In this document: in pieces, positions 29,086-45,611 of the stretch
Layout: every line of letters starts with the position of its first letter
Position numbering within the stretch: the first letter of the stretch is position 1
Made by a program: the position numbers and the translations under genes
The notes under the pieces: model-generated
What the model saw: only the letters and a program-made list of their open reading frames with translations
What the model was told of the DNA's origin: nothing
The model's database searches: none
NCBI GenBank assembly: GCA_963667175.2
Contig: CAXXXF010000012.1
Location: 128,001-192,000 of the forward strand
Direction of reading: 5' to 3'
DNA length: 64,000 bases
Source: Candidatus Latescibacterota bacterium
GTDB lineage: Bacteria; Latescibacterota; UBA2968; GCA-2709665

Positions 29086-29189
29086 TTTCGGCCATCAATT
29101 CTGATGAATACGGCGGTATCGCAATTCTCGTGTTTCCATTTGCGATCCGGCCGACGCTGTCGGATATCTCCGGACAGACGAAGTTCGAG

Positions 29190-31265: not shown

Positions 31266-31305
31266 TGTTCATTTTGGATTGTACGGCGTGAACATAGCAC
31301 TTCCG

Positions 31306-31632
31306 CTAAATCGCAATGACCTTCGTGACACCTTCCCGTTCCGGCCAATCGATATGTATGCTTACGTCGCAATTGAGACGCTCGAGAAACCGCATCAGCC
31401 TTTCGACGCTGTAATAGGAAAACTTGCCGTTCTTCAGTCTGGAGATCTCCGGCTGCTTAACCCCCATGATCCTCGCGGCCTTCGTTTGAGTCAGCCTGCG
31501 ATGTTCCAGAATCCGGAATATTTCCGCGCCGAGTTCTGCTTTGAGCAGTTCCTCTCTGGCTTCCTCATCACCAAAGCCGAGGTCTGTAAAGACGTTGCCG
31601 CTGCCCTCTTCGACTCTTATATCCTGGCCCAT
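31306..31632 (-). CDS. XRE/HigA-like HTH antitoxin (orphan)
   Basis: GSGNVFTDLG, LTQTKAARIMGVKQPEISRL and YSVERL motifs. Confidence 0.8.
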   Translation of the reverse strand: MGQDIRVEEGSGNVFTDLGFGDEEAREELLKAELGAEIFRILEHRRLTQTKAARIMGVKQPEISRLKNGKFSYYSVERLMRFLERLNCDVSIHIDWPEREGVTKVIAI

Positions 31633-31654
31633 AGGGGTCTCCTCACAACCCTTG

Positions 31655-32029
31655 TCACGCGCCGAACGACTTTAGCAGAATGGCCGGCAACCGTTTCAAC
31701 TCCTGGTTGCGAGGGTCCACCTCGAAGCCGCCGGACTCAAGCGCCGTCACCCCAAGCAGGGGTTCGGCGCCTTCCTCGCCATAGACGATTGTGCCGCCCA
31801 CGACCTCTCCCTCGAATTCAAGGTCGGCAGTCGTTATCTCCATGCTGATCCCGGTCCCGTCTGCGAGGGTGTACTCGCGGCGGCCCTTCGGCGTGAGTCC
31901 GATGGCTTCCAACCGAGCCCTGGGCACGAGCGAGTCGAACGCGCCGGTGTCCACCAGGAATGCGCCGGTCCAGCTTCGCTGCAGATCGGCCGGATTTCGG
32001 ATCGTTACGTCTACGTAGGTCGCGCCCAT
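31655..32029 (-). CDS. Clan AA (retropepsin-like) aspartic protease
   Basis: FLVDTGA, LADG and PLLGVTALE motifs. Confidence 0.85.
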   Translation of the reverse strand: MGATYVDVTIRNPADLQRSWTGAFLVDTGAFDSLVPRARLEAIGLTPKGRREYTLADGTGISMEITTADLEFEGEVVGGTIVYGEEGAEPLLGVTALESGGFEVDPRNQELKRLPAILLKSFGA

Positions 32030-32104
32030 CGTGAATCTCCTTTCGGCAGGTCCAGCACCATGGTTCGTGTCGCCGAAAAGATCACTGCAAACTTTCGTGC
32101 CATT

Positions 32105-33205
32105 TCACCGTGCCAGCCAGGCGCTGAAGCGCTCGTTCATCTCGTCCTGGTGATCGCTCCACCACTCCCAGTTGTTGCGCAGCGCGCGCTTTAAATTCTG
32201 CGGGCTGGTTGGCATGTGGGGATTCATATCCACGCCCTTTTCGGCGTGCGTCGAGATCAGCGGCGTCGCCGAGCGACGGGTTCCGCTGTATGCAATATGC
32301 CGGGCCACGCCGGCCATGGACTGCGCGGTTGACGCGAATCTCAGGAACTTCAACGCGGCCTCGATATTGGGCGTGCCCGCGACAACGCCCAGCCCGCCGG
32401 TGTCGAGCACCTGGCCGTCCCACACGATGACGAAGGGCTGGTTCTCCAGCACCTGAGCGTTGAAGATGCGCCCGTTGTAGGCCGTGCTCATCGCCACCTC
32501 CCCGTCGGCCAGCATCTGCGGCGGCTGCGCCCCGGCCTCCCACCATACGATATGTTCCTTGATCGTGTCCAGTTTTCGGAACGCGCGGTCCACGCCGGCG
32601 GGCGTATCGAGGACGGCGTACACCGAATCGATGGACACACCGTCGGCCATCAGCGCGAACTCCAGGTTCACCAGCGGCGAACGCCGCATCCCGCGACGCC
32701 CCGGGAATTTCTCCAGGTCGAAGAAGTCGGCAATGGCGGCCGGTTTCTCGCCCTTGATGTGCTTCTCATTGTACGCGTATACGGTGGAGTAGAAAATCGT
32801 TGCCGGACCGCAGTCCGTCATCGTCTCTGGCACAAAGTCCTCCGCCGCGGGCGTTGCGTCGGCTCCCGGCGGCAGCGATGCCGCGTCTACGGGTTCCAGC
32901 AGCCCCTCGTCGCAACCGCGGACCAGGTCCGGGGTCTCCAGGTCGACCACGTCCCAGTACACGTTGCCCACGTCCACCTGCGCGCGAATCTGCGCCAGGC
33001 CGCCGTTGTAATCTTCGAGATTGATCTTGATACCCGTGTCCGCGGTAAACTGTTCGTGGTAGCCCTTGACGCAGGCGCGCGCGTAGGACCCGCCCCACGA
33101 AACCACGGTCAATGGCCGATCGCCGGCGAGCGCGCCTCCCGCGATCAGCACGGACAGTCCCGCCAACGACGCGATGCGAACGATGTTGCTCCATAGATCC
33201 TTCAT
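32105..33205 (-). CDS. Polyamine-type ABC transporter substrate-binding protein
   Basis: Signal peptide; VSWGGSY, DFFDLEKFPGRR and ALMADGV motifs. Confidence 0.85.
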   Translation of the reverse strand: MKDLWSNIVRIASLAGLSVLIAGGALAGDRPLTVVSWGGSYARACVKGYHEQFTADTGIKINLEDYNGGLAQIRAQVDVGNVYWDVVDLETPDLVRGCDEGLLEPVDAASLPPGADATPAAEDFVPETMTDCGPATIFYSTVYAYNEKHIKGEKPAAIADFFDLEKFPGRRGMRRSPLVNLEFALMADGVSIDSVYAVLDTPAGVDRAFRKLDTIKEHIVWWEAGAQPPQMLADGEVAMSTAYNGRIFNAQVLENQPFVIVWDGQVLDTGGLGVVAGTPNIEAALKFLRFASTAQSMAGVARHIAYSGTRRSATPLISTHAEKGVDMNPHMPTSPQNLKRALRNNWEWWSDHQDEMNERFSAWLAR

Positions 33206-34311
33206 GTAGATTCCTCCTCGTTTTCCGGGTCCAGTACCCGGCAGTCCGTGGGCGTCCAGCCGATCCGGACGTTGTCACCCACCAGCATGGCGCCGTGCCC
33301 CACGATATTCGGTATCTTCGCGATAAAGTCCGACCGGCCGCAGACGTTGACGCGAACTCGCAGATGGTCGCCCAGAAACGTGATGTCTTCGATAATCGCA
33401 TCCAGTTCGTTCGTGTACAGCCCCGCCTCCGGCGAGACGGCGACGCGTTCCGGGCGAATCGAAAGCGTTGTGGCGTCGCCGGGCCGGCACGGCGCAACGC
33501 GCAGCGCCCGGACGATCTGACCGCCGGTTTCCACCTCGCAGATGTCCCCGTCGACGCTCCTCACGCGGCCATGGAGACGGTTGTTTTCCCCGATAAAGCG
33601 GGCGACGAAGGAGCGTTCCGGCTCTTCGTAGAGGACCTCGGGTTCGGCCACCTGCTCGACGTCTCCGCTCCGCAGCACCGCAATCCGGTCCGACATGACC
33701 ATTGCCTCCTCCTGATCATGCGTCACGTACACCATGGTGACGCCGAGGCTTTTGTGGATGCGCCGGATTTCGTATTGCATCTCCTCCCGCAAGCGCCGGT
33801 CGAGCGCGCCCAGGGGTTCGTCCATCAATACCAGCTCGGGCTCGAAGACCAGCGCGCGAGCGATTGCCACGCGCTGCTGCTGGCCGCCGGAGAGCTGCCC
33901 GGGCCGCCGGTCCTCGAGCCCGTCGAGCCGAACCAGCCGGAGGGCGCGAGCCACGCGTTCCCGGCATTGCGCCTCGTCCAGTCCCCGCACCTCCAGCGGA
34001 AAGGCGAGGTTCCGGCCCACCGTCATGTGGGGAAAGAGCGCGTAATTCTGAAAGACCATGCCGATCCCGCGTTTGCGCGGGGGCAGTTCATGCACGGACC
34101 GACCGTCGATGCGAATGGCGCCCGAGGTCGGCGTTTCGAAACCGGCCAGCATCATCAGGCAGGTGGTCTTGCCCGATCCGGACGGCCCGAGCATGGTCAG
34201 GAATTCACCCTTTTTCACGCTGAGATCGAGATTTTCGACGACCAGGGTCCTGCCGTCGAAGCTCTTGCTGACACCCTCGAACTCGACGTACGCGTTGTCG
34301 TTTCCTTGCAT
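33202..34311 (-). CDS. Polyamine-type ABC transporter ATP-binding protein (PotA-like)
   Basis: GPSGSGKTT, VFQNYALFPH and LSGGQQQR motifs; TOBE domain. Confidence 0.9.
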   Translation of the reverse strand: MQGNDNAYVEFEGVSKSFDGRTLVVENLDLSVKKGEFLTMLGPSGSGKTTCLMMLAGFETPTSGAIRIDGRSVHELPPRKRGIGMVFQNYALFPHMTVGRNLAFPLEVRGLDEAQCRERVARALRLVRLDGLEDRRPGQLSGGQQQRVAIARALVFEPELVLMDEPLGALDRRLREEMQYEIRRIHKSLGVTMVYVTHDQEEAMVMSDRIAVLRSGDVEQVAEPEVLYEEPERSFVARFIGENNRLHGRVRSVDGDICEVETGGQIVRALRVAPCRPGDATTLSIRPERVAVSPEAGLYTNELDAIIEDITFLGDHLRVRVNVCGRSDFIAKIPNIVGHGAMLVGDNVRIGWTPTDCRVLDPENEEEST

Positions 34312-34378
34312 TGAGGCGGCCTCTACGAACGGTGTTCGGTTTACTGGTTTCGCGAACGCGGCGGTCTGCCGCGGCGGC

Positions 34379-35203
34379 CTATCTTGCAGCGGAACGCCTT
34401 CGCATCCATTCAACGGCAAACAACAGCAGGACGGCGAAGACAATCAGAAACGTCGCCACCGCAAGGATGGTGGGGCTGATCTGCTCGCGGATTCCGGCCC
34501 ACATCTGACGCGGAATCGTACGCTGCTCGATGGCGGCCATGAACAGCACCACGACCACTTCATCGAAAGACGTGGCAAACGCGAAGAGCGCCCCCGAGAT
34601 CACGCCCGGCGCGATCAACGGCAGTTGGACGCGACGAAAGACGCGCACGGGCCCCGCGCCCAGGCTGGCGGCCGCACGCGTCAGATTGGTGTCGAACGCG
34701 GAGAGCGTGGCGGTCACCGTAATCACCACGAACGGCGTTCCCAGCGCGGCGTGGGCCAGAATCAACCCGATATGGGTCTGGGCCAGACCCAGGTTCGAGT
34801 AGAAGAAGAACATCCCCGCCGCCGCGATGATCACCGGGGTCACCATGGGCGAAATGAGCAGGCCCATCGCCCAGCGGCGGCCGGGCATGGCCGGGCTGGA
34901 AAGCCCCATCGCGGCGAGCGTTCCGAGTCCGGTCGCCAGCACCGTGGACGCGATGCCGATGACCAGACTGTTGACGAGCGCGCGCGTCCATACCTCGTTC
35001 TCGACGATCTGACGGTACCATCGCAGCGAATACGCGTCCGCGTCCAGACGCAGCATGCCCTCTGTAAAGGTGAAGTAGGGCTCCGCATTGAAGCTCAGAG
35101 GTACGATCACGAGGATCGGCGCAATGAGAAACAGGAAAACGGCCGTGCAGAAGCCAACGTAAATGAAACGGCCCACCCGTTCCCGCGTTCCGGCAGTCGC
35201 CAT
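34379..35203 (-). CDS. ABC permease (PotC-like)
   Basis: EAA-like RAAASLGA; SFDEVVV. Confidence 0.88.
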   Translation of the reverse strand: MATAGTRERVGRFIYVGFCTAVFLFLIAPILVIVPLSFNAEPYFTFTEGMLRLDADAYSLRWYRQIVENEVWTRALVNSLVIGIASTVLATGLGTLAAMGLSSPAMPGRRWAMGLLISPMVTPVIIAAAGMFFFYSNLGLAQTHIGLILAHAALGTPFVVITVTATLSAFDTNLTRAAASLGAGPVRVFRRVQLPLIAPGVISGALFAFATSFDEVVVVLFMAAIEQRTIPRQMWAGIREQISPTILAVATFLIVFAVLLLFAVEWMRRRSAAR

Positions 35204-35204
35204 C

Positions 35205-36419
35205 TCAACCCAACCTCATCCGCTCGATACCCACCAGACGGTCGTAGAGCAGATACAACGCCCCCACACAGGCCAGCAGGATGCCGCCGAGCGCCGCGGC
35301 AAGCCCCCAGTTGAGCGAGGTCTGCATGTGGAACGCAATCATATTGGAGATGAGTTGCCCGCTGCTCCCGCCCACCAGTGCGGGTGTGATATAGTACCCG
35401 ATGGCAAGAATGAATACCAGGAGCGATCCCGCGCTCACGCCGGGCAGCGACTGCGGCCAGTACACACGCCAGAAAGCCTGAAAGGAACTTGCGCCGAGGG
35501 AGGCCGCAGCGCTCATCTGAATGGGCGGAATGCCGCGCATGACCGAATAGAGCGGGAGAACCATAAAGGGAAGCAGCACGTGCGTCATCGCCACCAGCGT
35601 GCCGATCATGTTGTAAATCATGGCGAGCCGGCCGTCGTCGCCGATCAGCCCCAGAGTCACGAGCAGGTCGTTGAGTACGCCCTGGGTCTGCAACAGCACG
35701 ATCCAGGACGTGGTCCGCACAAGCAGCGACGTCCAGAACGGGACCAGCACAAGAATCAGAAGCAGATTGCCAATGCGCGGGGGCGCGTGCGCGATCAGGC
35801 GGGCAATCGGGTAACCGAGCAACAGACACAGCGCCGTGATGGTGAGGCTCACCCAGAGGGTCCGCCACAGCAAGGGAAGATAGATGCGTCGTTCTTCGGG
35901 TTGCCGCCCGACTGCGCCGTTCGGCAGGCGTTGAAGGTCGAGGGCGTTCAGATAGTGACGCGCGGTGTATCGCTCCCCGGCGCTCCGGATCGCGTGCCAG
36001 GTCCGCGCGTCCGCCCAGGCGGCGTCGATGCCGGTCATGGCGTCGCGCCACGGACCGCTGTCGACCTGACGGAGCCGCCGGGCGCTCTTCGTCAACACGC
36101 TTCGGAGCCCGCTCCGGACCCGGTTGACGCGGCTGGCAATCTGTCCGAGGGTCCGATCTTCGCGCGCCTGAACCAGTTCTCGCGCGGCCGACTCGTAGAC
36201 CGCCTCCGCGGGAGTGCTGCTGCCGTCCCAGTCGTTCAACAGCCCCAGCGTTCGCGGCAGGGCGTCGGAGACCACGGGATCGTACACGCTCCGCACCAGC
36301 ATCGTCGCAAGCGGCGCGACGAAGGTGAAACCGACAAAAGCCATCAGCGGCAGCGCCAGCCCCGCGGCGCGCAACCGGGGGCGGAGATTCGGGTTCTTAA
36401 TGTGCCGGTTTGACGCCAT
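35205..36419 (-). CDS. ABC permease (PotB-like)
   Basis: PFWTSLLVRT, LPFMVLPLY and GYYITPALVGG motifs. Confidence 0.88.
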   Translation of the reverse strand: MASNRHIKNPNLRPRLRAAGLALPLMAFVGFTFVAPLATMLVRSVYDPVVSDALPRTLGLLNDWDGSSTPAEAVYESAARELVQAREDRTLGQIASRVNRVRSGLRSVLTKSARRLRQVDSGPWRDAMTGIDAAWADARTWHAIRSAGERYTARHYLNALDLQRLPNGAVGRQPEERRIYLPLLWRTLWVSLTITALCLLLGYPIARLIAHAPPRIGNLLLILVLVPFWTSLLVRTTSWIVLLQTQGVLNDLLVTLGLIGDDGRLAMIYNMIGTLVAMTHVLLPFMVLPLYSVMRGIPPIQMSAAASLGASSFQAFWRVYWPQSLPGVSAGSLLVFILAIGYYITPALVGGSSGQLISNMIAFHMQTSLNWGLAAALGGILLACVGALYLLYDRLVGIERMRLG

Positions 36420-36679
36420 GCGGAAGATGTGATTCTCTTATTGGACGATTTAATTGAGAAAACGAACATCAGAAACTACGAAACACGCGAAAAAGCGCGA
36501 AAAATACCTGACTGAACCTAGTTAAGTCATAAAACGGAACTTACGTGGATAGACAGGACGAAAACCAAAAAGCACGAGAAAACGGGAAACCCAAAGAGCG
36601 CGACAAAGGCATTTGCCACAAAAGGCACAAAGGGAAATCTGTTTCTGTCCCGGACAGCGGTGAATCGACACCAAGCCGA

Positions 36680-36856
36680 CTACCCCTCTTGCAGGTGTGC
36701 CCATGCGGCATCCTCTTCCGGACGATTCCAGTCGTCAGCGAGTGAGGGTTCACTCAACAACGCCGTTTCAGAAGGTTCGATCCTTCCAGTGGCGTCTGCT
36801 TCGTTCCGGCCGGAGGCGCGGTCGAATTCGCAATCGGATATCTGCTTCTCCGGCAT
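36680..36856 (-). CDS. Small antitoxin-like protein (DUF2281-like tail typical of MazF/PemK partners); N-terminus possibly altered by the adjacent MITE
   Basis: Manual translation ends ETALLSEPSLADDWNRPEEDAAWAHLQEG; overlaps a MazF-like start MGTPARGVV at 36704 that degenerates after about 12 codons. Confidence 0.6.
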   Translation of the reverse strand: MPEKQISDCEFDRASGRNEADATGRIEPSETALLSEPSLADDWNRPEEDAAWAHLQEG

Positions 36857-36860
36857 CTAT

Positions 36861-37019
36861 CGTCCGTTGAAAAAGTCGCTCTGCAGGCGAGCCCGAGGCA
36901 TTGTGGCCGAAGACAAGGCGCGCGACCGACGCGAATCTCTGGATTCGGGGAGGGAGCGCAACGCCGTGTTTCGGCCACATGGGCCGGACGCAGACCGGAT
37001 GGACTTTATCAACGGGCTG
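36861..37019 (-). mobile_element. MITE-like non-autonomous element with imperfect TIRs (CCGTTGA..TCAACGG)
   Basis: Ends CAGCCCGTTGATAAAG and CTTTTTCAACGGACG; starts right after a TAG; second partial copy at 8758. Confidence 0.7.
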
Positions 37020-37586
37020 CTAAGGTCCGAATGTGGGGCAGCCCACAAGTGTTGGCGCGCAGCCTTCGGGAACGGGAACCTGAAACGCATTGAGGGTCTG
37101 CGCCACCAGGCTGTAATAGCCGACGATTCCCGTCAGCTCCACAACACCGGTCTTGCCGAGCGCTTCCTGCGCCGCGCTGAATACGCCATCCGGAACAACG
37201 TGCTTCCCCAACAATTCGCTGACGAAGTCAAAAACGGCGCGTTCGTCGTCTCGGCCGAAACCGGGCGCCCGTCCGTGCCGGACCGCGTCGATGAGTTCCT
37301 GACTCAATCCGCTTTCGACGGCGAAGGGTTCGTGCAGGGACCACTCCACCTGGCAGTCCCAGAATCGCGCGGTCACCAGGATGGCCAGTTCGCTCAGCCT
37401 GGGCGCCAGGCTCGTGCGGTACCGCACGAATTCACCCAGGCTCTGGGCGCGGTCGGCCAACTCCGGGCTGTGCAGCCAGACGCCGAACGGCCCGGAAATG
37501 CTGCCCCGGGACTCGAGGATCGCGTCGTAGATGCGCGCCTGCTCCGGATTCAGTTCGGCGCGCTCCAACTGGCCTGGTCTGGTCAT
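37020..37586 (-). CDS. Carboxymuconolactone decarboxylase/AhpD-like protein
   Basis: GPFGVWLHSPEL, ELAILVTAR, EWSLH and VGYY motifs. Confidence 0.85.
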   Translation of the reverse strand: MTRPGQLERAELNPEQARIYDAILESRGSISGPFGVWLHSPELADRAQSLGEFVRYRTSLAPRLSELAILVTARFWDCQVEWSLHEPFAVESGLSQELIDAVRHGRAPGFGRDDERAVFDFVSELLGKHVVPDGVFSAAQEALGKTGVVELTGIVGYYSLVAQTLNAFQVPVPEGCAPTLVGCPTFGP

Positions 37587-37670
37587 TCGCGAAGGCTCCG
37601 CATCGTTGAACTCAGGTCGATGTCAAAAGGATGTTGGGGGAAATCTCTTTAAAGGAGCGCAAATTCGTGT

Positions 37671-37799
37671 TCACCGGCTTGCCAATTCGACGGTCGACGT
37701 CGCCGGTGGCAGAGGCTTCCCGTCCTTATGATATATCGCGATCGCCTCCTCGACAATCTGGCATAGGTGATCGAAGACGGCACGCGCGAGTTCAGCGAC
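37671..37799 (-). pseudogene. Internally deleted hicA-hicB remnant
   Basis: Reads VAELARA (HicA start of 40304-40501) fused in frame to RAVFDHLCQIVEEAI...STVELASR (HicB end of 40083-40307); no in-frame start codon. Confidence 0.75.
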
Positions 37800-37840
37800 G
37801 ACATTGGAGTTGATTATACCATTAAAGGAGCAAGTGAGTC

Positions 37841-37922
37841 GTAGCACAAACTGTTAGTTTGTGCACCGTAAGAAATCCCATCCACGTTTGTCCTCAGCAC
37901 GCAAGCTGACAGTTTGCGCTAC
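37841..37922. repeat. REPIN 1 (inverted pair of GTAG-REPs)
   Basis: GTAG-CACAAACT-GTT-AGTTTGTG on +, and GTAG-CGCAAACT-GTC-AGCTTGCG on -. Confidence 0.85.
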
Positions 37923-38023
37923 CTTCGAAGGCCCGGAAATGCCGCCCTTATCCACAAATCCGGCCCGCACGAGCTCTGAGACCATAAAGAAGCCAATTAC
38001 ACCGTCAAAAAAGCAAGTGGGTC

Positions 38024-38105
38024 GTAGCACAAACTGTTAGTTTGTGCACCGTAAGAAATCCCATCCACGTCTGTCCTCAGCACGCAAACTGACAGTTTGC
38101 GCTAC
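38024..38105. repeat. REPIN 2 (near-identical to REPIN 1; overlaps the RAYT stop)
   Basis: 82-nt near-exact direct repeat of 37841-37922. Confidence 0.85.
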
Positions 38106-38844
38106 GGTCCGATGCCCGGCGATAACTCCAACGCCACTCTTCCCAATTTTCCACGAGACCCGCTTTCACCGGGTTGTTAAGAATGTACGTTATAATCCGC
38201 TCCCATTCACTTGCATCCCGAATACATCGATCGTAACTTTCGTGCTGCCAGAATGACCCTTGCCGCCTTAATAGCCGATTTGCTTTCCATGCTGTATAGC
38301 CTTTCAGCGATTGCATAATCGAGGAAAGCGAGTTATAGCACGAATCGCCCGCTTCAGCCGAATTGTCCCGCAAGCTGTCGGAATGCGTTACGGACGGTTG
38401 GGTCACAAGTGGCGCAAACACAATATGAACGTGATTGGCCATGATACAGTAGGCATCCAACCGGTACACCTTCCCATCTCGGTAGCGCAGACTCTCATCC
38501 ACCTCTTTAGCGATTCGCTCATCTTTGAGCCACAAGGGTCCACTTTGCGCACTATCCAGCGTTGTCTCGAATTTCCGGAACCACTGTCGCTGCCATTCCG
38601 ACTCGCGATCTTCCGCATCACGTTCTTTGTCGAGTGTAACGCGTCCTGCTGAGGCAACGCGGCTCCGCAACGAGGCAAGACGCTCTTTTTCTTTTTCGAG
38701 TTGGTGTTTCTCCTGCGCCCATTCTTGCAAGACGATCCGCGGCAGGGAACCTGCAAGATGGAACGTGACAAAGAAAGTTGCGCCGGGCGGCTGTATATGC
38801 GGCAGGTTGCGACGATAGTACGGCTTGTAGTCAAATTGGCTCAT
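38077..38844 (-). mobile_element. REP-associated tyrosine transposase (RAYT; IS200/Y1 HUH family)
   Basis: RRNLPH, FFVTF, YCIMANHVH (HUH), FWQHESYDR and YILNNPVKAGL motifs; adjacent REPINs. Confidence 0.88.
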
Positions 38845-38871
38845 GTGCTATTTCGTTCTCGGTAGATCGTG

Positions 38872-39090
38872 TCAAGTGTCGCCTGCCCGCAATATGCCTT
38901 GCAGCCGACCCTTTTCTTTTTCTTCGAATGCCTCCGAGATCAAGAAATCCAATTTGCCGGCCCTTGAATCCGCTTCAATCCGCCGATCCCATTTTCTCCA
39001 GTCCAATTCGCTAAACGATTGTCTTAATTCAACATAATCAGATTCCGGAAGCGCCATAATCGCGTCCTTTATTTCAGCTATTTTTGTCAT
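38872..39090 (-). CDS. Small antitoxin-like protein (normally upstream of a RelE/ParE-like toxin); orphan here
   Basis: EIKDAIMALP...WDRRIEADSRAGKLDFL pattern recalled from TA-associated small proteins. Confidence 0.55.
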   Translation of the reverse strand: MTKIAEIKDAIMALPESDYVELRQSFSELDWRKWDRRIEADSRAGKLDFLISEAFEEKEKGRLQGILRAGDT

Positions 39091-39285
39091 TTTACATACC
39101 CCTCGTCAAATCCGTTTCCAGACAAAGACTGCGATTCTTGAACACCGATTTTCCGATCAGGTGGAAAAGATCGACCCCAGCCATCCAGTGATATACGGGA
39201 TGGTTTCAGAAGCAACTACGCGGGACTTTGAAATCTCGACGAATGAAATCGATTGAACCGAATTGATCGTACTCCTTTGCACGTC

Positions 39286-39314
39286 CAATTCGGGAGACGC
39301 CGTCTCCCGAATTG
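39286..39314. repeat. Perfect 14-bp-arm palindrome (REP-like)
   Basis: CAATTCGGGAGACG-C-CGTCTCCCGAATTG. Confidence 0.7.
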
Positions 39315-39528
39315 CAGCTTACACTATGGAGAAGAGCCGATACCGCCGCCACTCCGTCTCGTCCACTCGCACCGACCCATCTCTCCGTAGCCTACCGGCA
39401 AGCTTTACAAGAACTGTGTTCCCAATTTGTGACCGCTTCTTGGAGATCAAGGTATACGTAGCCCACCCATTCCGACAGTCTCGCCTCATTAACCCGCAGG
39501 ATGGACGTTTTCTGCACGGTGTTTGGTT

Positions 39529-39813
39529 CTATTGTCTACCTCGGTCAGGATTCATCCATTGGGGAAGCGGAGTCCCCGTCGCCTCTGCATACAAAGTCTC
39601 AGGTGCGATGTCGATTTCGCTTCCCCACGTAAGTACCCCAAGCTCCTCGTTCACGTTAAAGCTCCGAAAGTACTCGAGGTCCCTGAATCGCTCGAACACG
39701 CCACGCCTTTCCAGTTGTTTCGCGAAGTCAACGGTCCCGCGCCGGCCGTCATCGAACTCCAGTTCTATTCGATAGCCACCCTGGTAGGTTGCAGAAATCA
39801 CGTCGTGCAGCAT
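39529..39813 (-). CDS. DUF2442 family putative antitoxin, copy 1
   Basis: YRIELEFDDG, GVFERFRD and LTWGSEIDIAPETLY motifs. Confidence 0.85.
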   Translation of the reverse strand: MLHDVISATYQGGYRIELEFDDGRRGTVDFAKQLERRGVFERFRDLEYFRSFNVNEELGVLTWGSEIDIAPETLYAEATGTPLPQWMNPDRGRQ

Positions 39814-39826
39814 CCGCGGTTCCCTT

Positions 39827-39979
39827 CTATTGCAGAGGTGGTATTCTTCCTGGGGGCATGTCGTCGCACGTCGAATCCCAGTTTTCCATCAACTCCGGCT
39901 GATGTTGGGACGCCCACTCGACGACCAGACCCAGAATCCGCGGAGCCAGTCTCCCTTCCAATACCCGCAGTGAGGACAT
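39827..39979 (-). pseudogene. 5'-truncated DUF4160 putative toxin
   Basis: Manual translation LRVLEGRLAPRILGLVVEWASQHQPELMENW...RIPPLQ; the N-terminal half with the H-x-PPH motif is absent. Confidence 0.75.
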
Positions 39980-40082
39980 CTCGGGCAAATTGAATCCTCT
40001 CGCTCATTTGTATAGTGTAAAACCACCGCAACGAAAGACCCCATCACCAGGTCGCGGCGACTACTGAGCACGTCTTTACGGC

Positions 40083-40307
40083 TCATCGGCTTGCTAATTC
40101 GACGGTCGACGTCGCCGGGGGCAACGGCTTCCCGTCCTCCTGATATAATTCAATTGCGTCCTCTACAATCTGGCAGAGTTGATCGAAGACGGCCCGTTCA
40201 TCGTCTCCGTGGCAGCCGCCGTAAATCAGACCGGGCGCGCTCCCGACATAACATCCATCCTCCTCCGACCATTCGACAATCTTTGCGTACCTCGCGCTGG
40301 CTTTCAT
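40083..40307 (-). CDS. HicB family antitoxin
   Basis: VEWSEEDGCYVGSAPGL..GCHG and GKPLP motifs. Confidence 0.8.
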   Translation of the reverse strand: MKASARYAKIVEWSEEDGCYVGSAPGLIYGGCHGDDERAVFDQLCQIVEDAIELYQEDGKPLPPATSTVELASR

Positions 40308-40501
40308 TTTTCTGACTCCTCGATTGCCAATCGTACGGCACGAACTTGGTAATGCCTAGCGTCGTCACCCGAATTACCCGAGATCGTTAGCGGTTGACTC
40401 AGGTTCGGGTGTACAAAGTTCCTATGGTTACCCTTGCCGCCCCTATCCACAAATCCAGCCCGCGCGAGTTCTGCGACTAATTCCCTCACCTTTGGCGGCA
40501 C
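40304..40501 (-). CDS. HicA family toxin
   Basis: LARAGF..GKGNHRNFVHP; ATGA overlap with hicB. Confidence 0.8.
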   Translation of the reverse strand: MPPKVRELVAELARAGFVDRGGKGNHRNFVHPNLSQPLTISGNSGDDARHYQVRAVRLAIEESEK

Positions 40502-40607
40502 CAGGATCCCTTCCGACTCATATCCATATATCGATGGATGTCCATGTCTTCATGCGGATTCGGATCCATAAACAGAATGATGAGCGTTTTCCGGACGGAG
40601 CGTGGTG

Positions 40608-40892
40608 CTATTGTTCAACTCGGTCAGGATTCATCCACTGGGGAAGCGGGGTCCCCGTCGCCTCTGCATACAGAGTCTCCGGTGCGACGTCGATTTCGTT
40701 TCCCCACGTAAGAACCCCAAGCTCCTCGTAAACGGTGAAATTCCTGAAGAACTCAAGGTCCCTGAATCGCTCGAAAACACCCTGTCGGTCCAGATATTTC
40801 GCGAAGTCAACGTTCCCGCGCCGGCCGTCATCGAACTCCAGTTCAATCCGATAGCCGCCCTGATAAGTTGCCGAAACCACGTCGTGCAGCAT
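40608..40892 (-). CDS. DUF2442 family putative antitoxin, copy 2
   Basis: Close paralog of 39529-39813. Confidence 0.85.
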   Translation of the reverse strand: MLHDVVSATYQGGYRIELEFDDGRRGNVDFAKYLDRQGVFERFRDLEFFRNFTVYEELGVLTWGNEIDVAPETLYAEATGTPLPQWMNPDRVEQ

Positions 40893-40905
40893 CCGCGGCC
40901 CCCTT

Positions 40906-41133
40906 CTATTGCAGAGGTGGTATTCTTCCTGGGGGCATGTCGTTGCGCGTTGCGAAACTCAGGGCCGCCAGAACGCCTTGCCTGGTCAAACGGGGATGCG
41001 CTTCGAGTATCTGATCGATTGTCTCGCCTTCTGAAAGTTTCTCCAGGATCAACTCAACGGTAATGCGGGTTCCCGCGACGACGGGCTTTCCCATCATGAC
41101 GACAGGATCGGATTGAATGAGTTTGGCGTCCAT
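40906..41133 (-). CDS. DUF433 antitoxin-like protein fused to a DUF4160 C-terminal tail
   Basis: DPVVMMGKPVVAGTRITVELIL...AALSFA, then NDMPPGRIPPLQ, matching the tail at 39827. Confidence 0.8.
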   Translation of the reverse strand: MDAKLIQSDPVVMMGKPVVAGTRITVELILEKLSEGETIDQILEAHPRLTRQGVLAALSFATRNDMPPGRIPPLQ

Positions 41134-41362
41134 ATCTCAACTCCCCATTTGGAGCGAACCTGCAATTTCGTGATGCGGACAGGGGAAACGTGTGAGACTT
41201 CGTTATACCGGCCTCGTCCTCGCGAGACATTGCATCTGCTCGATCGCTTGCGAATCCGACATTGAAGATCAGGCCGCCCGGCGCGATCATAGGACGGTTT
41301 CACTTCACAGGTGTCACGCATTGTTGTCGTAAGCGTCAGGTGGATTGGTGAGACATCTGAAC

Positions 41363-41578
41363 TTATGATGCTATCTCAACGTACATCGAATCCGAGGTTG
41401 GTTCGGGAATCGGATAGCGTTCCTGTTTCATTCCATCGAGGCGGAATTCGATCGCCTCCTTCATGTTCGTTTCCACTTCCCGCCGCGTGGCGCCGGCGGA
41501 CACACATCCTGGTAGATCGGGAGAATATGCCGAAAACCCGGTTTCCGTCACTTCGATGACGATCAAGTACCGATTCAT
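41363..41578 (-). CDS. HicB family antitoxin (orphan)
   Basis: FSAYSPDLPGCVSAGAT...EAIE...PIPEP; no hicA adjacent. Confidence 0.85.
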   Translation of the reverse strand: MNRYLIVIEVTETGFSAYSPDLPGCVSAGATRREVETNMKEAIEFRLDGMKQERYPIPEPTSDSMYVEIAS

Positions 41579-41681
41579 GCCGTTCCCGTTGTCTATTATC
41601 GTTGCGAGCGCCACACTCGGACCGCATTGCACGAACCGAAACTTGCTCCGTTTCTATTGACCGCACGCGGGAACTCATCCC

Positions 41682-42755
41682 TCACACCCCATGTGCTTCG
41701 ATGAAGTCCTCGTTGACGGTCAGTCCGAGGCCGGGTTCGTCTCCCATGTGGATCAGTCCATCGATGATGCGGAAGGGCGGATCGTAGAGTTGCGACCAGA
41801 TCTGGTACGGCTCGGTGGGCGGGCAGGCGGAGACCATCAGCCCGTTGGGCACGGCGGCGATCAGGTGGCAGTTGATTTCCGGAAACGAGGCCCCATGAGG
41901 CGCCACGTAGACGTGGTGCGCCTCGGCCAGCGCCGCCATCCGCATCAGACCCGTGAAGCCCCCGCCGCCGATAATGTCAGATTGAACCACCTGCATGCCG
42001 CCGTCGACGATCAGATGACGAGTGCCATACAGCGTGCCTTCGCTCTCGCCGCCGGCGACCAGCGCGCTCGTCGCCTCGCGAACCATCCGCATGTGCGCCG
42101 CTTCGTCGTCACCCCGGACGGGTTCCTCGATCCAATACAGGTTGTACGGCTCGAACCGTCGCGCCATGTCCGCGGCCGTTTTTCCCTCCCACATCCGGTG
42201 GACGTCGATCATCAGCCTCGGTCCGTCGCCCAGGGCCTCGCGCGACAGCCGGACCTTATCGAACGCGAGTTCGCGATCGTCATCCGACAGATGGAACTTC
42301 ACGGCCCTGAATCCGAGGTCCGCGTGTTTCCTGACGAGGGCCGCGACCTCCTCGGCGTTCTGATGCTCATAGCCGATCCCGTCCGCGTACGCGGTGACCC
42401 GGTTCCGATACCCGCCCAGCAGCCGCCAGACCGGTTCGCCGCACGCCTTCCCGTACAGATCCCAAATTGCCACGTCCAGCGCGCCGATCGTCCCCATCGC
42501 GGCCCGGCCGGGCCCGCGAAAGCGCCACGCGTGATCGTACATCCGCTGCCATAGCAGCGCCGGGCGGCGCGGGTCTTCGCCCACGAGCAGCGGCGCGAAT
42601 TCACGTTCGATCAGTTCTGCGCTTCCCCCTCTACCGATGCCGGCGAGCCCGTTGTCCGCATGGACAAAGTGAAGGGGCCAGGACCGCTTGACTCCCCGAT
42701 CGGACGGCCCCCAGAAACAGGACAGCGAAACCGTCTCAATTCGTTCGATACGCAT
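41682..42755 (-). CDS. Mandelate racemase/muconate lactonizing enzyme family protein
   Basis: DVAIWDLYGK, VKFH, MIDVH, WIEEP, GGE and PGLG motifs. Confidence 0.88.
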   Translation of the reverse strand: MRIERIETVSLSCFWGPSDRGVKRSWPLHFVHADNGLAGIGRGGSAELIEREFAPLLVGEDPRRPALLWQRMYDHAWRFRGPGRAAMGTIGALDVAIWDLYGKACGEPVWRLLGGYRNRVTAYADGIGYEHQNAEEVAALVRKHADLGFRAVKFHLSDDDRELAFDKVRLSREALGDGPRLMIDVHRMWEGKTAADMARRFEPYNLYWIEEPVRGDDEAAHMRMVREATSALVAGGESEGTLYGTRHLIVDGGMQVVQSDIIGGGGFTGLMRMAALAEAHHVYVAPHGASFPEINCHLIAAVPNGLMVSACPPTEPYQIWSQLYDPPFRIIDGLIHMGDEPGLGLTVNEDFIEAHGV

Positions 42756-42772
42756 GGCGCGACCTCCTGTGT

Positions 42773-43198
42773 TCAGGATGCGATGCGTTTACAAAGAACC
42801 ACCTGGGTCCCGGTCTCGAAAAACTGGTGTGCGACGTCGTCCACCATCGCGCGCATCATCAGCAGGCCGCGGCCGGACGAATTCAACAGGTTCTCCTCTG
42901 CAAGCGGATCCGGAACCGCGGCCGGGTCGAATCCCGGACCCTGATCCCGGACCGCGATGCGTAACATCCCGTCTGCTACTGCAAATTCCACGGTGAACGA
43001 TCGCTCCCGCACGCCGCCGTTGCCGTGGAAGATGGCATTGTTGACGGCTTCCGTCAGCGCGATGGCCACCTCGTCGCAGGCATCCTCGCTCATCGCCAGA
43101 TCGGCCGTGACCTGCGCAGCAGCGTCAACCACCTTATGAAGCGATTCTACGCAACTCGGCAACTCCAGTCGTCTGACGTTACGAGACTCGATACCCAT
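42773..43198 (-). CDS. Anti-sigma factor/Ser kinase (RsbW-like HATPase)
   Basis: EAVNNAIFHGN, DQGPGFD and GRGL motifs. Confidence 0.85.
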   Translation of the reverse strand: MGIESRNVRRLELPSCVESLHKVVDAAAQVTADLAMSEDACDEVAIALTEAVNNAIFHGNGGVRERSFTVEFAVADGMLRIAVRDQGPGFDPAAVPDPLAEENLLNSSGRGLLMMRAMVDDVAHQFFETGTQVVLCKRIAS

Positions 43199-43265
43199 GT
43201 ACGCATTCCCTCGTACCGTTCACCGGCGCGACGAACGTCTCCGCCGGCCGAGTGGGGGATTCTCC

Positions 43266-43298
43266 TTGACAATCCGTGTTCTTGACGTTATCAAGAAC
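43266..43298 (+). promoter_or_regulatory. TTGACA promoter element overlapped by the inverted repeat GTTCTTGA-N5-TCAAGAAC (putative operator)
   Basis: Perfect 8-bp arms in the divergent rsbW-like/ridA intergenic region. Confidence 0.4.
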
Positions 43299-43378
43299 GA
43301 CCACGAAGGTGAAAGTGTCTACCGTCTTCTCGCCACGTACACAGTACGTCCCGAACAATCGAATGGAGATATCGCATC

Positions 43379-43762
43379 ATGCAGAAAGAGGTGATTCGCA
43401 CCGACAAGGCAGCCCTTCCCGTGGGTCCCTATTCGCAGGCCATCAAAACAGGCGAGTTGATCTTTGTGGCGGGCGAAAAGGGAATCGACCCCGCCACCGG
43501 CGAAATCGTCAGCGGCGGCATTGCCGCGGAAACCCGGCAGACGCTCGACAACGTCAAGGCGATCCTGGACGCGGCGGGCGCGACGATGGGCCACGTGGTC
43601 CGCACGGTTGTGTATATGACGGACATCTCGGAATTCGCCGAAATGAACGCCGTCTACGCGGGATACTTCCCGAGCGACCCTCCCGGTCGGAGTTGCGTCC
43701 AGGTGGTCGCGCTCCCTGCCGGGGCGCACGTCGAAATCGAAGTCACCGCGGTCCTGGCCTGA
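43379..43762 (+). CDS. RidA/YjgF family reactive-imine deaminase
   Basis: GPYSQA, FAEMNAVY, PGRSCV and VEIE motifs. Confidence 0.9.
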   Translation: MQKEVIRTDKAALPVGPYSQAIKTGELIFVAGEKGIDPATGEIVSGGIAAETRQTLDNVKAILDAAGATMGHVVRTVVYMTDISEFAEMNAVYAGYFPSDPPGRSCVQVVALPAGAHVEIEVTAVLA

Positions 43763-43778
43763 TCTGCCCGCGGCAGCG

Positions 43779-44576
43779 CTACATCCCGGACAGGATCCCC
43801 TCGACGTAACCTCGTGCAAACGCCACGTCCCTGTCCACCTCGTCCGGCTCTTTGCCTCCCACGCATTCCACGTAGAGCGGACCGTCAAACCCGCCGGCGA
43901 CCAGACCGGACAACACCGAATGAAAATCCACCAGCCCGTCGCCGGGCGTGACCATCACGTCGGGCACGCCGTCGACCACCGTACAGTCTTTGATGATCCC
44001 CGTCGTCACCACCGGCGCCACTTCCGAGACGTCCGTCTCGGGCCGCAGATCACCCTTTGTGTAGTAGATGATGTTTCCCGGATCGTAGCAGATGCCGAAC
44101 GCCGCGTGGTTCACGTTCCGGTTGGCCGCAAGGAGGTGGGACACCGTGAGACTGATCCCCCCGTGGGGCTTCATGGTTACGTTCACGCCGACCTCATCCG
44201 CGTGGGGCGCGGCCTGCCGCATCAACTCGAAATAGTCGTCGAAGTGGGCTTCATTGCTTGTGCCGCAGTCCAACAGCCAGTTCGCGCCCAGCGCGGCCGC
44301 ATTGTCGATCAGTCGCTTGTAGTCGTCCACCGCGGCATCCAGGCCGTCGCCCAGCCGCGTGCCGCCGATGAGCATCGACGGAACCACGCCGGCGTCTTCC
44401 GCCGCTTTGCGCACGTCCGCGACCTCTGCGGGCGAGCTGTCCGGTCCGACCGGCGCCTGCCCGTCATTGGCAAATACAGCCACGTCCGAATAGCCGGCCT
44501 CGGCAATCCGGCTGTACGCTTCGCTGTAACTCAGTTGGCCGTAAGGCCGCGTCGTACATCCAACCGTCAATTCCAT
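43779..44576 (-). CDS. Sugar phosphate isomerase/epimerase family TIM barrel
   Basis: KPHGG, YDPGN, IKD, PGDG.VDF and VEC motifs. Confidence 0.75.
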   Translation of the reverse strand: MELTVGCTTRPYGQLSYSEAYSRIAEAGYSDVAVFANDGQAPVGPDSSPAEVADVRKAAEDAGVVPSMLIGGTRLGDGLDAAVDDYKRLIDNAAALGANWLLDCGTSNEAHFDDYFELMRQAAPHADEVGVNVTMKPHGGISLTVSHLLAANRNVNHAAFGICYDPGNIIYYTKGDLRPETDVSEVAPVVTTGIIKDCTVVDGVPDVMVTPGDGLVDFHSVLSGLVAGGFDGPLYVECVGGKEPDEVDRDVAFARGYVEGILSGM

Positions 44577-44617
44577 CCTTGTCGCTCCTTTGCTGGTTCG
44601 TCCGGACAAACGCCGGA

Positions 44618-45409
44618 TCACTCTTCCATTTCACGCCCGCAGTGCGGACAGATGCCGCCTTCTTTCTTGCGCCGGTCGATCTCTTCCGCGAACCCCGATC
44701 CCAGGATGCCGGCCGGGAGGGCAAACATCCCGATGCCCAGAAGCGCGATCACGGCGCCGAGTACCTTTCCCACGCCGGTCACCGGGTACGTGTCTCCGTA
44801 TCCCACCGTCGTCAGCGTCACGATACCCCACCACATGGCCGACGGAATGCTGGAAAAAGCGTTGGGTTGAGCGCCGTTTTCCGCGAAGTACATCAGCGTC
44901 GACGCGATGACCAGCATGATCAGCAGGACGAACAGGGTGACCAGCAATTCGCCGCTGTGCTTCCGCAACACGTTGGCGAGGGTCTGCAGAGAGGCGGAAT
45001 ACCGTCCGAGCTTGAACAACCGCAACAGCCGCATGGCTCGCAATACGCGGAGGTCGACGGTGGTTACCAGAGGCAGGTAGAACGGCAGGATCGCGATCAG
45101 GTCCACCAGTGCCAGCGGCGTAAAGAAATAACGCAATCGACCCCGAACGGGCCTGGCAAATCGTTCATCGGCGGTACATGACCACATTCGCATCAGGTAT
45201 TCGATGCTGAACACACCCACTGAAAAGGCGTCGAACGCTTCGAACAGCCACCTGTACGACACCAGGACGGCCTGCACCGTTTCGAGGATGACAGCCACAA
45301 CGTTCAGGATGATCAACCCCATGATGAACAGGTCGATCATTCGACTCGCACGGTCGCCTGACTGCGCCTTGTCCAGGATTTGGTTGGTCCGTTCTTTGAA
45401 CCGATGCAC
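44618..45409 (-). CDS. Voltage-gated-type potassium channel
   Basis: S4-like LRVLRAMRLLRLFK; TTVGYGD selectivity filter; C-terminal CPHC. Confidence 0.9.
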   Translation of the reverse strand: MHRFKERTNQILDKAQSGDRASRMIDLFIMGLIILNVVAVILETVQAVLVSYRWLFEAFDAFSVGVFSIEYLMRMWSCTADERFARPVRGRLRYFFTPLALVDLIAILPFYLPLVTTVDLRVLRAMRLLRLFKLGRYSASLQTLANVLRKHSGELLVTLFVLLIMLVIASTLMYFAENGAQPNAFSSIPSAMWWGIVTLTTVGYGDTYPVTGVGKVLGAVIALLGIGMFALPAGILGSGFAEEIDRRKKEGGICPHCGREMEE

Positions 45410-45611
45410 GAGGGCGTCCTTTCACTTTCGCACGATTGACGTCGGCACGCCGCGTCCGCCGCCGGCCAGCCCCGGGGCGTCGGCGCAGGCAATCTCAAAG
45501 ATAGGATTCTAGGGTTCGAATGGAAACGTCTTTTTCCAATGAGTGCATCGCCCGCGCGGAATCGCCGCCTCAATCGTCATTCGGCAAACCCGTATCAACA
45601 ATTGGAGACCG

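Follow-up and report, generated by a model that had tools for sequence, protein, structure and literature searches.

The window analysed in this work is a stretch of 64,000 nucleotides (nt) from a Candidatus Latescibacterota bacterium (G000:C12:128001-192000, on contig CAXXXF010000012.1 of assembly GCA_963667175.2; the genome, G000, comprises 5.5 Mb in 18 contigs). It carries an array of small toxin-antitoxin (TA) genes in which, with a single exception, the toxin genes have been lost or truncated, whereas most of the antitoxin genes are intact. The array is on the minus strand, as are the two genes that flank it and, among the elements described below, orf58, the MazF start and the gene at 31306, and is located between a gene of the enolase superfamily (MR_MLE; 41682..42755; Pfam MR_MLE_C, E 2.4e-51) and a gene of the carboxymuconolactone decarboxylase (CMD) family (37020..37586; PF02627, E 1.6e-6). 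Starting from the enolase-superfamily gene, the order is HicB1, DUF433, DUF2442a, HicA2/HicB2, half of a DUF4160 gene and DUF2442b, followed, after a spacer of 438 nt, by orf72, a REP-associated tyrosine transposase-like gene (RAYT), two REPINs with a piece of hicA between them, the 3' remnant of a hicB and the CMD gene. Beyond the CMD gene there are a 162-nt hairpin repeat, orf58 and a PemK/MazF gene of which a start of ~12 codons is left. The array is embedded in a core region of the chromosome (rpoB, L7/L12, a Bat operon, ABC transporters), and the GC content is ~0.60-0.66 in the flanks versus 0.49-0.56 in the array. Each open reading frame (ORF) call was checked with Pfam and NCBIfam and against intact relatives in sister genomes. 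In what follows, G numbers denote genomes of the genus set and L numbers individual loci.

HicB1 (41363..41578; PF15919, E 1.4e-9) is an orphan HicB-type antitoxin of 71 amino acids without a DNA-binding domain, and no HicA gene adjoins it. The next gene, DUF433 (40906..41133; PF04255, E 5.6e-21, domain in residues 6-61), is of the antitoxin type; its DUF5615 partner is missing from the array. According to the junction alignment, the DUF433 ORF continues in frame into a DUF4160 3' end, which supplies its last ~14 codons, from which it follows that one deletion took both the DUF433 partner and nearly all of the first DUF4160 gene. Behind this tail is DUF2442a (40608..40892; PF10387, E 3e-15), an orphan DhiA-type antitoxin whose match to the NCBIfam antitoxin DhiA model (E 3.3e-7) was below the cut-off; the score of 30.9 bits against a cut-off of 200 indicates that the DUF2442 proteins of the window are distant relatives of DhiA. 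A single toxin gene of the array has remained intact, HicA2 (40304..40501; PF07927, E 2.8e-9); it overlaps hicB2 by 4 nt and is intact also in G009 and G005. Its antitoxin HicB2 (40083..40307) had no Pfam match, is 30% identical to HicB1, and occurs as an orphan in G001, G003, G004 and G006. The following DUF4160 (DhiT-type toxin) remnant (39827..39988) covers profile positions 33-64 of 65 of PF13711, and its alignment with the intact 86-amino-acid genes of G003 and G006 showed that the 5' half is deleted. It precedes DUF2442b (39529..39813; PF10387, E 1.2e-14), a second orphan DhiA-type antitoxin with 86% amino acid identity to DUF2442a. Intact DUF4160-DUF2442 pairs were found in G003, G006 and L130; in the window, both DUF2442 genes are intact and only DUF4160 remnants precede them.

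No Pfam or NCBIfam model matched orf72 (38872..39090), whose tail runs into the first codons of a lost toxin gene. In G013 a relative of orf72 is followed, with a TAG-ATG junction, by an intact gene for an 84-amino-acid ParE_like toxin (PF24732, E 1.1e-5). At 22 outgroup loci in the phylum a full-length toxin gene was found downstream in 12 cases, a damaged one in five and none in five. The pairing in G013 and at 12 of the 22 outgroup loci identifies orf72 as the antitoxin of a so far unnamed family, for which 67 database relatives, mostly 66 amino acids long, were found. In the window the place of the toxin is taken by the RAYT (38077..38844), which scored 23.3 bits with Pfam Y1_Tnp (cut-off 23) and 70.7 bits with NCBIfam REP_Tyr_transpos (NF047646; E 1.2e-19, cut-off 80). 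The latter match covers the C-terminal part only, and there is an insertion of ~110 amino acids relative to the NCBIfam model; HVH and YxxxNP motifs were recognized by eye in the translation. REPIN 1 (38024..38105, minus strand) consists of two inverted 26-nt REPs, the first of which overlaps the last nine RAYT codons, and can form a DNA hairpin of -22.3 kcal/mol (z -5.25). REPIN 2 (37841..37922, minus strand; fold z -2.33) belongs to the second copy of a 183-nt tandem unit. Between the REPINs is a 43-nt piece of a second hicA copy (37940..37982; 88% identical to 40435-40477), and behind them the 114-nt 3' end of a second hicB copy, hicB3' (37671..37784; 85% identical to 40083-40196), a dead remnant that differs from the G012 sequence by one-base indels. 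In its final ~70 nt (37671-37740) conservation between G000 and G012 is much higher than in nearby non-coding DNA (91% identity for the whole remnant versus 69-83%); this part may be a signal for the CMD gene that follows.

Past the CMD gene, orf58 (36680..36856) overlaps what is left of a PemK/MazF toxin gene (36669..36704), namely a start of ~12 codons as judged from the intact 114-amino-acid gene of G005 (PF02452, E 2.5e-5), which is preceded by an orf58-type tail. Only the C-terminal 28 amino acids of orf58 match a widespread family of antitoxin-like proteins of 72-73 residues, which makes orf58 a broken antitoxin and this module a wreck on both sides. With an orphan HigA-like gene located past the ABC transporter operon (see below), six type II families are represented: HicAB (two subtypes), DUF433/DUF5615, DUF4160/DUF2442 (DhiTA), orf72/ParE_like, the MazF partner and HigA-like. 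Hidden toxins were searched for with Pfam among 17 ORFs in the gaps or on the opposite strand, and none matched near the cut-off (the sole hit had E 0.097 and 13.2 bits versus a cut-off of 23).

These gene calls reproduced the original prediction, made from the letters of the window, for all of its nine elements, which were found at their positions on the minus strand. HicB1 and the gene at 31306 had been recognized as orphans of the HicB and HigA types, DUF433 as lacking a PIN-type partner, the second DUF2442 gene as following a DUF4160 gene without its N-terminal half, HicA2/HicB2 as the single intact pair, orf72 as an antitoxin-like ORF with the RAYT in the toxin position, and the sequence at 37671 as the remnant of a hicAB module; about five unrelated module families had been expected where six were found. 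Two details had to be corrected. The DUF4160 tail in front of DUF2442a is there, but has ~14 codons and not the 12 residues given, and at 36680 the toxin does collapse after ~12 codons as described, but the partner is itself broken and retains only its C-terminal 28 residues.

The site was then compared in G000 and 14 congeners, 13 of which could be assessed; the contig of G002 stops 643 nt after the enolase-superfamily gene. Orthologues of this anchor gene were present in 14 of 14 congeners (89-95% amino acid identity), and the CMD gene in 13 of the 13 assessable ones. Eleven genomes (G000 and ten others) carry an array, two are empty and one has other DNA at the site. The predicted variation of module content at a fixed site was evident, as all 11 arrays differ. 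The closest relative, G012, has HicB1, orf72, the RAYT and a REPIN with the hicB remnant, whereas HicB1, orf72, DUF2442 and HicA-HicB2 make up the array of G009 and also that of G005, where they are preceded by 11 kb of AbiJ-like, type III restriction-modification (R-M) and AAA_15 genes. A hicA pseudogene, HicB1 and orf72-ParE_like were found in G013; HicB1, truncated orf72 and HicB2 in G001; the same three and DUF4160-DUF2442 in G003; and HicB1, HicB2 and DUF4160-DUF2442 in G006. G008 has HicB1, a frameshifted HicB2, DUF4160 with a nonsense codon and DUF2442, G007 has HicB1, orf72 with an in-frame TAG and DUF2442, and G004 only HicB1 and HicB2. In the empty sites of G010 and G014 the anchors are 51 nt apart. 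The defence island of G005 (L087:2038-L088:3692), located between the enolase-superfamily gene and HicB1, encodes AbiJ_NTD4/DUF7014, type III Mod and Res, DUF2441 and an AAA_15/AAA_21 ATPase; the array of the window itself contains no defence genes. G011 has unrelated ORFs and a ParE-like remnant; in addition, the last 57 codons of the enolase-superfamily gene are present a second time (65% identity), stranded behind the intact gene (L018:2506-2676). This duplicated tail suggests that islands are exchanged by recombination within the flanking gene.

The G000 array equals that of G012 plus a block of 2.26 kb (39094..41355), which extends from DUF433 to the spacer behind DUF2442b and was not detected in G012 by blastn. 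The form without the block was seen in metagenome contigs of other runs, where 39094 is joined to 41367 and 39054 to 41354. Because G000 is a metagenome-assembled genome with an estimated contamination of 4.75%, and related strains with other forms of the array co-occur in public runs, the mosaic could in principle be a chimera of such strains made by the assembly. None of the sequencing runs searched contained half or more of the words sampled from the stretch. Contigs from four runs (at least 90% likeness) covered the stretch partially, with no cover of 39165-39506 in the contigs of those four runs, and the right-hand junction of the block at 39094 is without independent support. However, a contig from another run spans 41207-41586 and thereby bridges the left junction at 41355, and the toxin-stripped pattern recurs in single-contig chromosomes (e.g. 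G001, G007, G008, G009 and G013). Contigs of other runs also cover HicB2-HicA-DUF2442a and the DUF433 region with 94-96% identity. There is thus only the slightest chance that the array is an assembly artefact.

Scans of the window from 28000 to 46000 revealed no tRNA or tmRNA gene, and an Rfam scan of 36000-42000 gave no match at E values up to 0.1. No integrase or recombinase family was found among the scanned large ORFs (36 in the main scan of surrounding ORFs, plus the array, gap and anchor ORFs; five of the 51 listed large ORFs fell outside the scans and were taken as opposite-strand shadows). The only repeats in the array are the gene duplicates and the REPINs. An integron or another cassette array built by a recombinase was rejected, as there is no integrase in the scanned ORFs, no repeated attachment site at cassette borders and no tRNA. 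Consensus scans for promoter-like (4 found, 2.4 expected) and terminator-like sites (5 found, 6.0 expected) were uninformative. The locus is best explained as a variation hotspot without an integrase, which forms a small TA and defence islet within the core chromosome of a Candidatus Latescibacterota genus.

To describe the state of the modules, genes were counted as intact over the 11 arrays when they gave a full-length match without a stop. Antitoxin genes were intact in 32 of 38 cases, as against six intact toxin genes in all. The numbers of intact antitoxins and toxins were 11/11 HicB1 and no HicA1, 5/8 orf72 and one ParE_like, 8/8 DUF2442 and two DUF4160, 7/10 HicB2 and three HicA2, and 1/1 DUF433 and no DUF5615. 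An intact toxin beside a broken antitoxin was not seen in any of the 11 arrays. HicB1 is the clearest case: it has an adjoining intact HicA in 0 of 11 arrays, and the sole hicA1 gene surviving in the arrays of the genus, upstream of HicB1 in G013, is a pseudogene with a stop and a frameshift. At 28 loci outside the genus with HicB1 homologues (41-76% identity) HicA directly upstream was intact in 16 cases (one of these with a scrambled middle), damaged in seven and missing in five (one of these at a contig edge). Erosion of toxin genes similar to that in the genus is therefore found outside it, both for hicA (7/28 damaged, 5/28 without) and for ParE_like (5/22 damaged, 5/22 without).

The toxins were lost through at least ten differing lesions, comprising deletions, a nonsense codon, a frameshift and replacement by RAYT/REPIN sequences. 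G000 and G012 have in common the RAYT replacement and the REPIN with an internal hicA-hicB fusion, and G000 has, in addition, the fusion of DUF433 to the DUF4160 tail and the loss of the 5' half of DUF4160. In G009 a deletion joins ~ParE codon 10 to the DUF4160 tail, and in G001 and G003 one joins orf72 codon 58 to the start of hicB2; a start codon is lost in G007, DUF4160 has a nonsense codon (in-frame TGA) in G008, and in G004, G006 and G008 HicB1 directly adjoins HicB2. MazF is truncated in G000 and G009. Apart from the pseudogene of G013, hicA1 was removed by deletions with differing upstream junctions. These observations show that toxin genes are destroyed one after another once resident, and that the deletions often fuse neighbouring ORFs in frame. 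The original prediction, that toxins are removed and antitoxins kept, was right in that loss of the toxin is by far the commoner event; keeping of the antitoxin is not universal, as hicB3' and orf58 are wrecks and broken genes were found for orf72 in G007 and for HicB2 in G008.

The part played by the RAYT can be judged from the same comparison. The array had been predicted to be built around the RAYT, possibly with RAYT/REP-mediated capture of TA modules; RAYT and REPINs would then also have excised the toxins. In favour of this, the RAYT has the very position expected for the ParE_like toxin, the 5' end of a hicA is taken up by REPINs, and the REP family is real, with 13 copies of the 26-nt REP in the genome (at up to five mismatches), four of them in the array. 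Nevertheless, RAYT and REPINs occur at this site in only two of the 11 arrays (G000 and G012), the other nine being toxin-stripped alike without a RAYT, and REPs are absent from the junctions of most lesions, which are simple deletions or point mutations. Compared with an array of the G009 type, the RAYT replaced ParE_like from ~codon 5-8 on, the DUF2442 antitoxin and the 5' end of hicA, and a further deletion fused the start of hicA to the 3' end of hicB in G000 and G012; the RAYT event thus cost the array an antitoxin and half of hicB as well. The REPINs are found only on the 3' side of the RAYT. Relatives of the RAYT in G002 and G006 (66-67% identity) are beside REP arrays of their own, at another locus which has no match to the array proteins and no TA genes, and the account of RAYT/REPIN systems in PMC5581495, in the part consulted, draws no link from RAYTs to the capture of TA modules. 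A RAYT that assembles and disarms the array is therefore highly improbable, and the distribution and the junctions show it as a late and indiscriminate intruder rather than the organizer of the array. Another Y1-transposase-like gene of G000, at C3:192553-193083 (L074, L084), is only distantly related to the RAYT (33% identity).

To estimate selection on the antitoxins, ratios of non-synonymous to synonymous divergence (dN/dS) were calculated according to Nei and Gojobori from codon alignments of full-length, stop-free copies of these short genes. The sets did not include HicB2 of G008, orf72 of G007 and the truncated orf72 of G001 and G003; G005, fetched later, was left out of the genus-wide sets. 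The flanking genes gave 0.078 (enolase-superfamily gene, 13 species), 0.08-0.10 (ABC transporter genes, 11-12 species) and 0.12 (CMD gene, 13 species). The values for the antitoxins were 0.13 for HicB1 (10 species, 45 pairs, mean dS 0.59), 0.12 for HicB2 (6 species), 0.10 for orf72 (4 species) and 0.13 for DUF2442 (7 copies). In G000 and G012 both the RAYT junction and the one upstream of HicB1 are identical in kind, so the corresponding toxin losses must precede the split of the two genomes. Between them dN/dS was 0.19 for HicB1 (7.5 non-synonymous and 10.5 synonymous differences; P 0.003 versus neutrality) and 0.21 for orf72 (P 0.002). DUF2442a versus DUF2442b gave 0.17. When only orphans were compared, HicB2 gave 0.11-0.28 (0.10 for the paired G000-G009 comparison) and DUF2442 0.16-0.23 (0.12 for the paired G003-G006 comparison), so that orphan antitoxins cover a range of 0.10-0.28, as against 0.08-0.12 for the flanking genes. 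Non-coding neighbours of G000 and G012 are 69-83% identical and contain indels; in a rough neutral simulation using the indel rate of these stretches, the chance that a frame stays open per lineage was 3-6% at half the G000-G012 distance and ~0.04-0.2% at half the typical genus distance. Neutral evolution of the antitoxins, which the original prediction had named as contrary evidence, is contradicted by the dN/dS values, the G000-G012 tests and the simulation alike. By these comparisons the orphan antitoxins are under purifying selection, perhaps somewhat relaxed.

Intact cognate toxins elsewhere in the genome had been named as contrary evidence, too. G000 is rich in TA genes, with 12 HicA matches (nine over the cut-off), nine HicB_lk, five DUF5615 matches and, outside the window, five intact DUF4160 genes. 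A tblastn search with the toxins of sister species through the whole genome outside the window found nothing above 49% identity, and no match at all for ParE_like and MazF; the best matches were 41% for HicA1, 49% for DUF4160 and 36% for DUF5615. Those for HicA1 and DUF4160 have partners of their own, and the other genomic HicA genes inspected mostly adjoin a HicB-like neighbour (as read from the ORF list, in some cases backed by Pfam). Thus no close intact cognate toxin was found in the genome by this search.

Relatives of the DUF433 gene in another family of the class are more similar to it (81-87% identity, over residues 1-63 only) than those at other loci of congeners (73-79%). Of the 11 closest DUF433 loci (79-87% identical), ten are in this other family. 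DUF433-DUF5615 is intact in L128 and L129, the latter with DUF2442 behind it, as it is in G000 itself at another locus (C6:643.8 kb). L135 has a half-length DUF5615, L130 has DUF433 followed by DUF4160-DUF2442, and in L125, L127, L131 and L132 (4 of the 11 closest loci) both toxins are gone and DUF433 is directly followed by DUF2442. The occurrence of the same modules in another family at 81-87% protein identity shows that the modules move horizontally, and the DUF433 and DUF2442 doublet was eroded in parallel in the two families. At L125-L135 (genus g25 and others), where toxin loss can be followed through all its stages, the DUF433-DUF5615 and DUF4160-DUF2442 doublet adjoins a type I restriction hsdR gene.

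Some further features were noted around the array. A second variable site, at 29190-32029, contains a 691-amino-acid PLD-nuclease/P-loop protein, a clan-AA aspartic protease and the orphan HigA-like antitoxin HTH_37 (31306..31632; PF13744, E 8e-23), each of which is found in some congeners only. Three of three paralogues of HTH_37 in the genome have a Gp49/HigB-type toxin upstream, which the gene at 31306 has not. The 162-nt repeat next to the CMD gene (36862..37022) resembles a miniature inverted-repeat transposable element: it forms a single long hairpin (fold z -5.5), gave 162 blastn high-scoring segment pairs distributed over all 18 contigs, had extremely high coverage in four public metagenome runs, and has no relation to the 26-nt REP found with the RAYT. 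At L088:5795-8454 (G005) a 783-amino-acid DEAD/Helicase_C/MrfA-Zn helicase ORF ends in a 33-residue orf58-type antitoxin tail and overlaps the intact PemK/MazF gene; this may be a fusion through which a helicase with an antitoxin tail controls MazF, or an accidental junction.

Taken together, the results are probably best accounted for by a hotspot of TA and defence genes under toxin-first erosion, in which orphan antitoxins would be kept to neutralize toxins in trans. Multi-module type II TA islets are located between the same two conserved genes, with a content that differs from species to species. The modules, which also occur in another family of the class, move horizontally, and new content would enter by recombination in the flanking genes or within modules held in common. 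Resident toxins are eroded by deletion, nonsense and frameshift mutations and, in one lineage, by the arriving RAYT and its two REPINs, while the antitoxin frames stay open under purifying selection long after the toxin is lost. The orphans would persist since they could still neutralize related toxins in trans, a form of anti-addiction or immunity, and the source of such toxins could be further copies of the circulating TA islets that enter the cell, or other mobile DNA. Several points weigh against this account. The species are related, so that the counts of antitoxins and toxins are not independent events, and retention is not absolute, with 6 of 38 antitoxin instances broken or truncated; exclusion of broken copies biases the dN/dS estimate towards constraint. 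The orphan-only values are slightly above the paired ones (0.10-0.12), suggesting some relaxation. Pairwise dN/dS averages the whole divergence, part of which may, except in the G000-G012 comparison, predate toxin loss, and the junctions upstream of HicB1 differ between lineages, which allows for several recent losses. Pattern-limited scans of viral contigs yielded a single relative of HicB1 (46% identity) and none of DUF2442; without close relatives there, no incoming cognate toxin on a mobile element was seen. Finally, expression of the orphans and binding of toxins by them are putative.

A stronger version would have the hotspot act as a selection-maintained bank of antitoxins, rendering a disarmed lineage that goes on expressing its antitoxins immune to addiction or killing by incoming islets. 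We consider this version doubtful. If true, it would mean that multi-TA islets circulate among co-resident Latescibacterota, and would explain why a toxin-free doublet of DUF433 and DUF2442 arose independently in two families and why four unrelated families of orphans stay under purifying selection. It could also be that there is no bank and the TA modules simply decay, the toxin having to go first because loss of the antitoxin first is lethal, and the antitoxins being on their way out; low dN/dS would then be carried over from the time when the genes were paired, or reflect weak cross-protection against the many paired TA systems of the genome. Such decay would produce what was reported for Photorhabdus, where 185 copies had only the toxin pseudogenized, 186 both genes and eight only the antitoxin (PMC13617665, as far as consulted). 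It would also agree with the broken antitoxins seen here (hicB3', orf58, orf72 of G007, HicB2 of G008), with the loss of everything at the site in two of 14 assessable genomes (G000 included) and with the somewhat higher dN/dS of orphans than of paired copies. What makes decay alone, the main rival of the preferred account, a rather unlikely explanation is that HicB1 and orf72 have dN/dS values of ~0.2 (P 0.002-0.003) between G000 and G012, whose losses predate their split, that HicB1 is intact in 11 of 11 arrays while the sole surviving hicA1 has a stop and a frameshift, and that retention of the frames was unlikely in the neutral simulation. Alternatively, the orphans may be kept for a job unrelated to their toxins, such as regulation or service to a new partner, or may be paired with unrecognized toxins nearby. 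Purifying selection alone does not specify a function, and regulatory roles are listed for orphan antitoxins in reviews (PMC7192599 and PMC8198452, in the parts consulted). This is improbable, however: HicB1 and HicB2 are of 71-74 amino acids and have no DNA-binding domain (the Pfam match comprises positions 1-60 of 123), the 17 ORFs in gaps or on the opposite strand gave no toxin match near the Pfam cut-off, and each of four unrelated antitoxin families would have to have been co-opted. The account that we prefer, toxin-first erosion at a TA and defence hotspot with orphans retained for neutralization in trans, bears on an old and unsettled question, the role of chromosomal TA systems and orphan antitoxins. 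As four orphan families are side by side and intact cognates are available in sister species or a neighbouring genus, cross-neutralization is directly testable in E. coli, and the locus, each family of which shows measurable purifying selection, offers an unusually clean natural test set for orphan antitoxin function.

Anti-addiction has a precedent in Erwinia chrysanthemi, whose chromosomal CcdA neutralizes the CcdB toxin of the F plasmid (PMC7354431). Orphan antitoxins were considered to fit the anti-addiction model, with the reservation, in the part of the article consulted, that such use 'remains to be demonstrated' (PMC7354431; see also PMC8198452). As in the CcdA case, a chromosomal antitoxin without a harmful partner could counter an incoming homologous toxin; unlike there, neutralization is putative in the present case and no mobile element with a cognate toxin was found in viral contigs. 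Abundant orphan antitoxins in contexts of former pairs were described in Klebsiella pneumoniae and were proposed to be remnants, anti-addiction modules or regulators (PMC7192599, as far as consulted). Those orphans are scattered over the genome, whereas up to six are arranged head to tail at one site here, and, in contrast to that report, the orphans were tracked across a genus and selection on them was measured. The DhiTA system of Dickeya dadantii is a validated pair of DUF4160 toxin and DUF2442 antitoxin with the toxin gene first (PMC8198452, part consulted). The same pair of domains in the same order is intact in G003, G006 and L130, whereas both DUF4160 genes of the window are destroyed.

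RAYT/REPIN systems have been characterized by Bertels and Rainey as a single-copy gene similar to Y1 transposases with hairpin-forming REP doublets and dispersed REPs (PMC5581495, part consulted). The present system is similar in having a single-copy gene, REP doublets that form hairpins and REPs dispersed in the genome, but differs in the low number of REPs (13), their position on the 3' side only, the insertion of ~110 amino acids and the location at different loci in different congeners. Orphan immunity arrays, such as rhs/CDI orphan modules and acquired interbacterial defence clusters, protect against toxins from other cells, and some of them are built by recombinases. The array of the window likewise consists of toxin-less, putatively protective genes at a variable locus; unlike those, however, it contains type II antitoxins left by decay in place, with toxin remnants adjoining.

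The closest parallel is Photorhabdus, in which TA systems were found in small spots of high turnover, with the same site refilled and modules lost by deletion or by pseudogenization of the toxin (Belot, Payelleville, Jurenas, Rocha, Van Melderen, Mol Biol Evol 2026, PMC13617665, part consulted). Refilling of the same site, toxin-first loss and compact islets of TA genes only are common to both, and toxin-first erosion at TA spots is thus already described. A search of the literature outside subscription journals found no paper joining orphan antitoxins, purifying selection and toxin-antitoxin systems. The Photorhabdus study, in the part consulted, infers relaxed selection, whereas dN/dS of the orphans is 0.1-0.28 here, and TA systems rarely cluster with defence systems there, whereas G005 has R-M, AbiJ-like and AAA_15 genes at the site (PMC13617665). 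The organism studied here, moreover, is uncultured and of a different phylum, and the only linked transposase or integrase is the late RAYT. With the present locus, toxin-first erosion of TA spots, known from Photorhabdus, is seen in an uncultured phylum as well; the locus also adds a dense head-to-tail array of orphans of four families, a measure of the constraint acting on them, and an unnamed family of 66-amino-acid antitoxins for ParE_like toxins that is not recognized by Pfam or NCBIfam.

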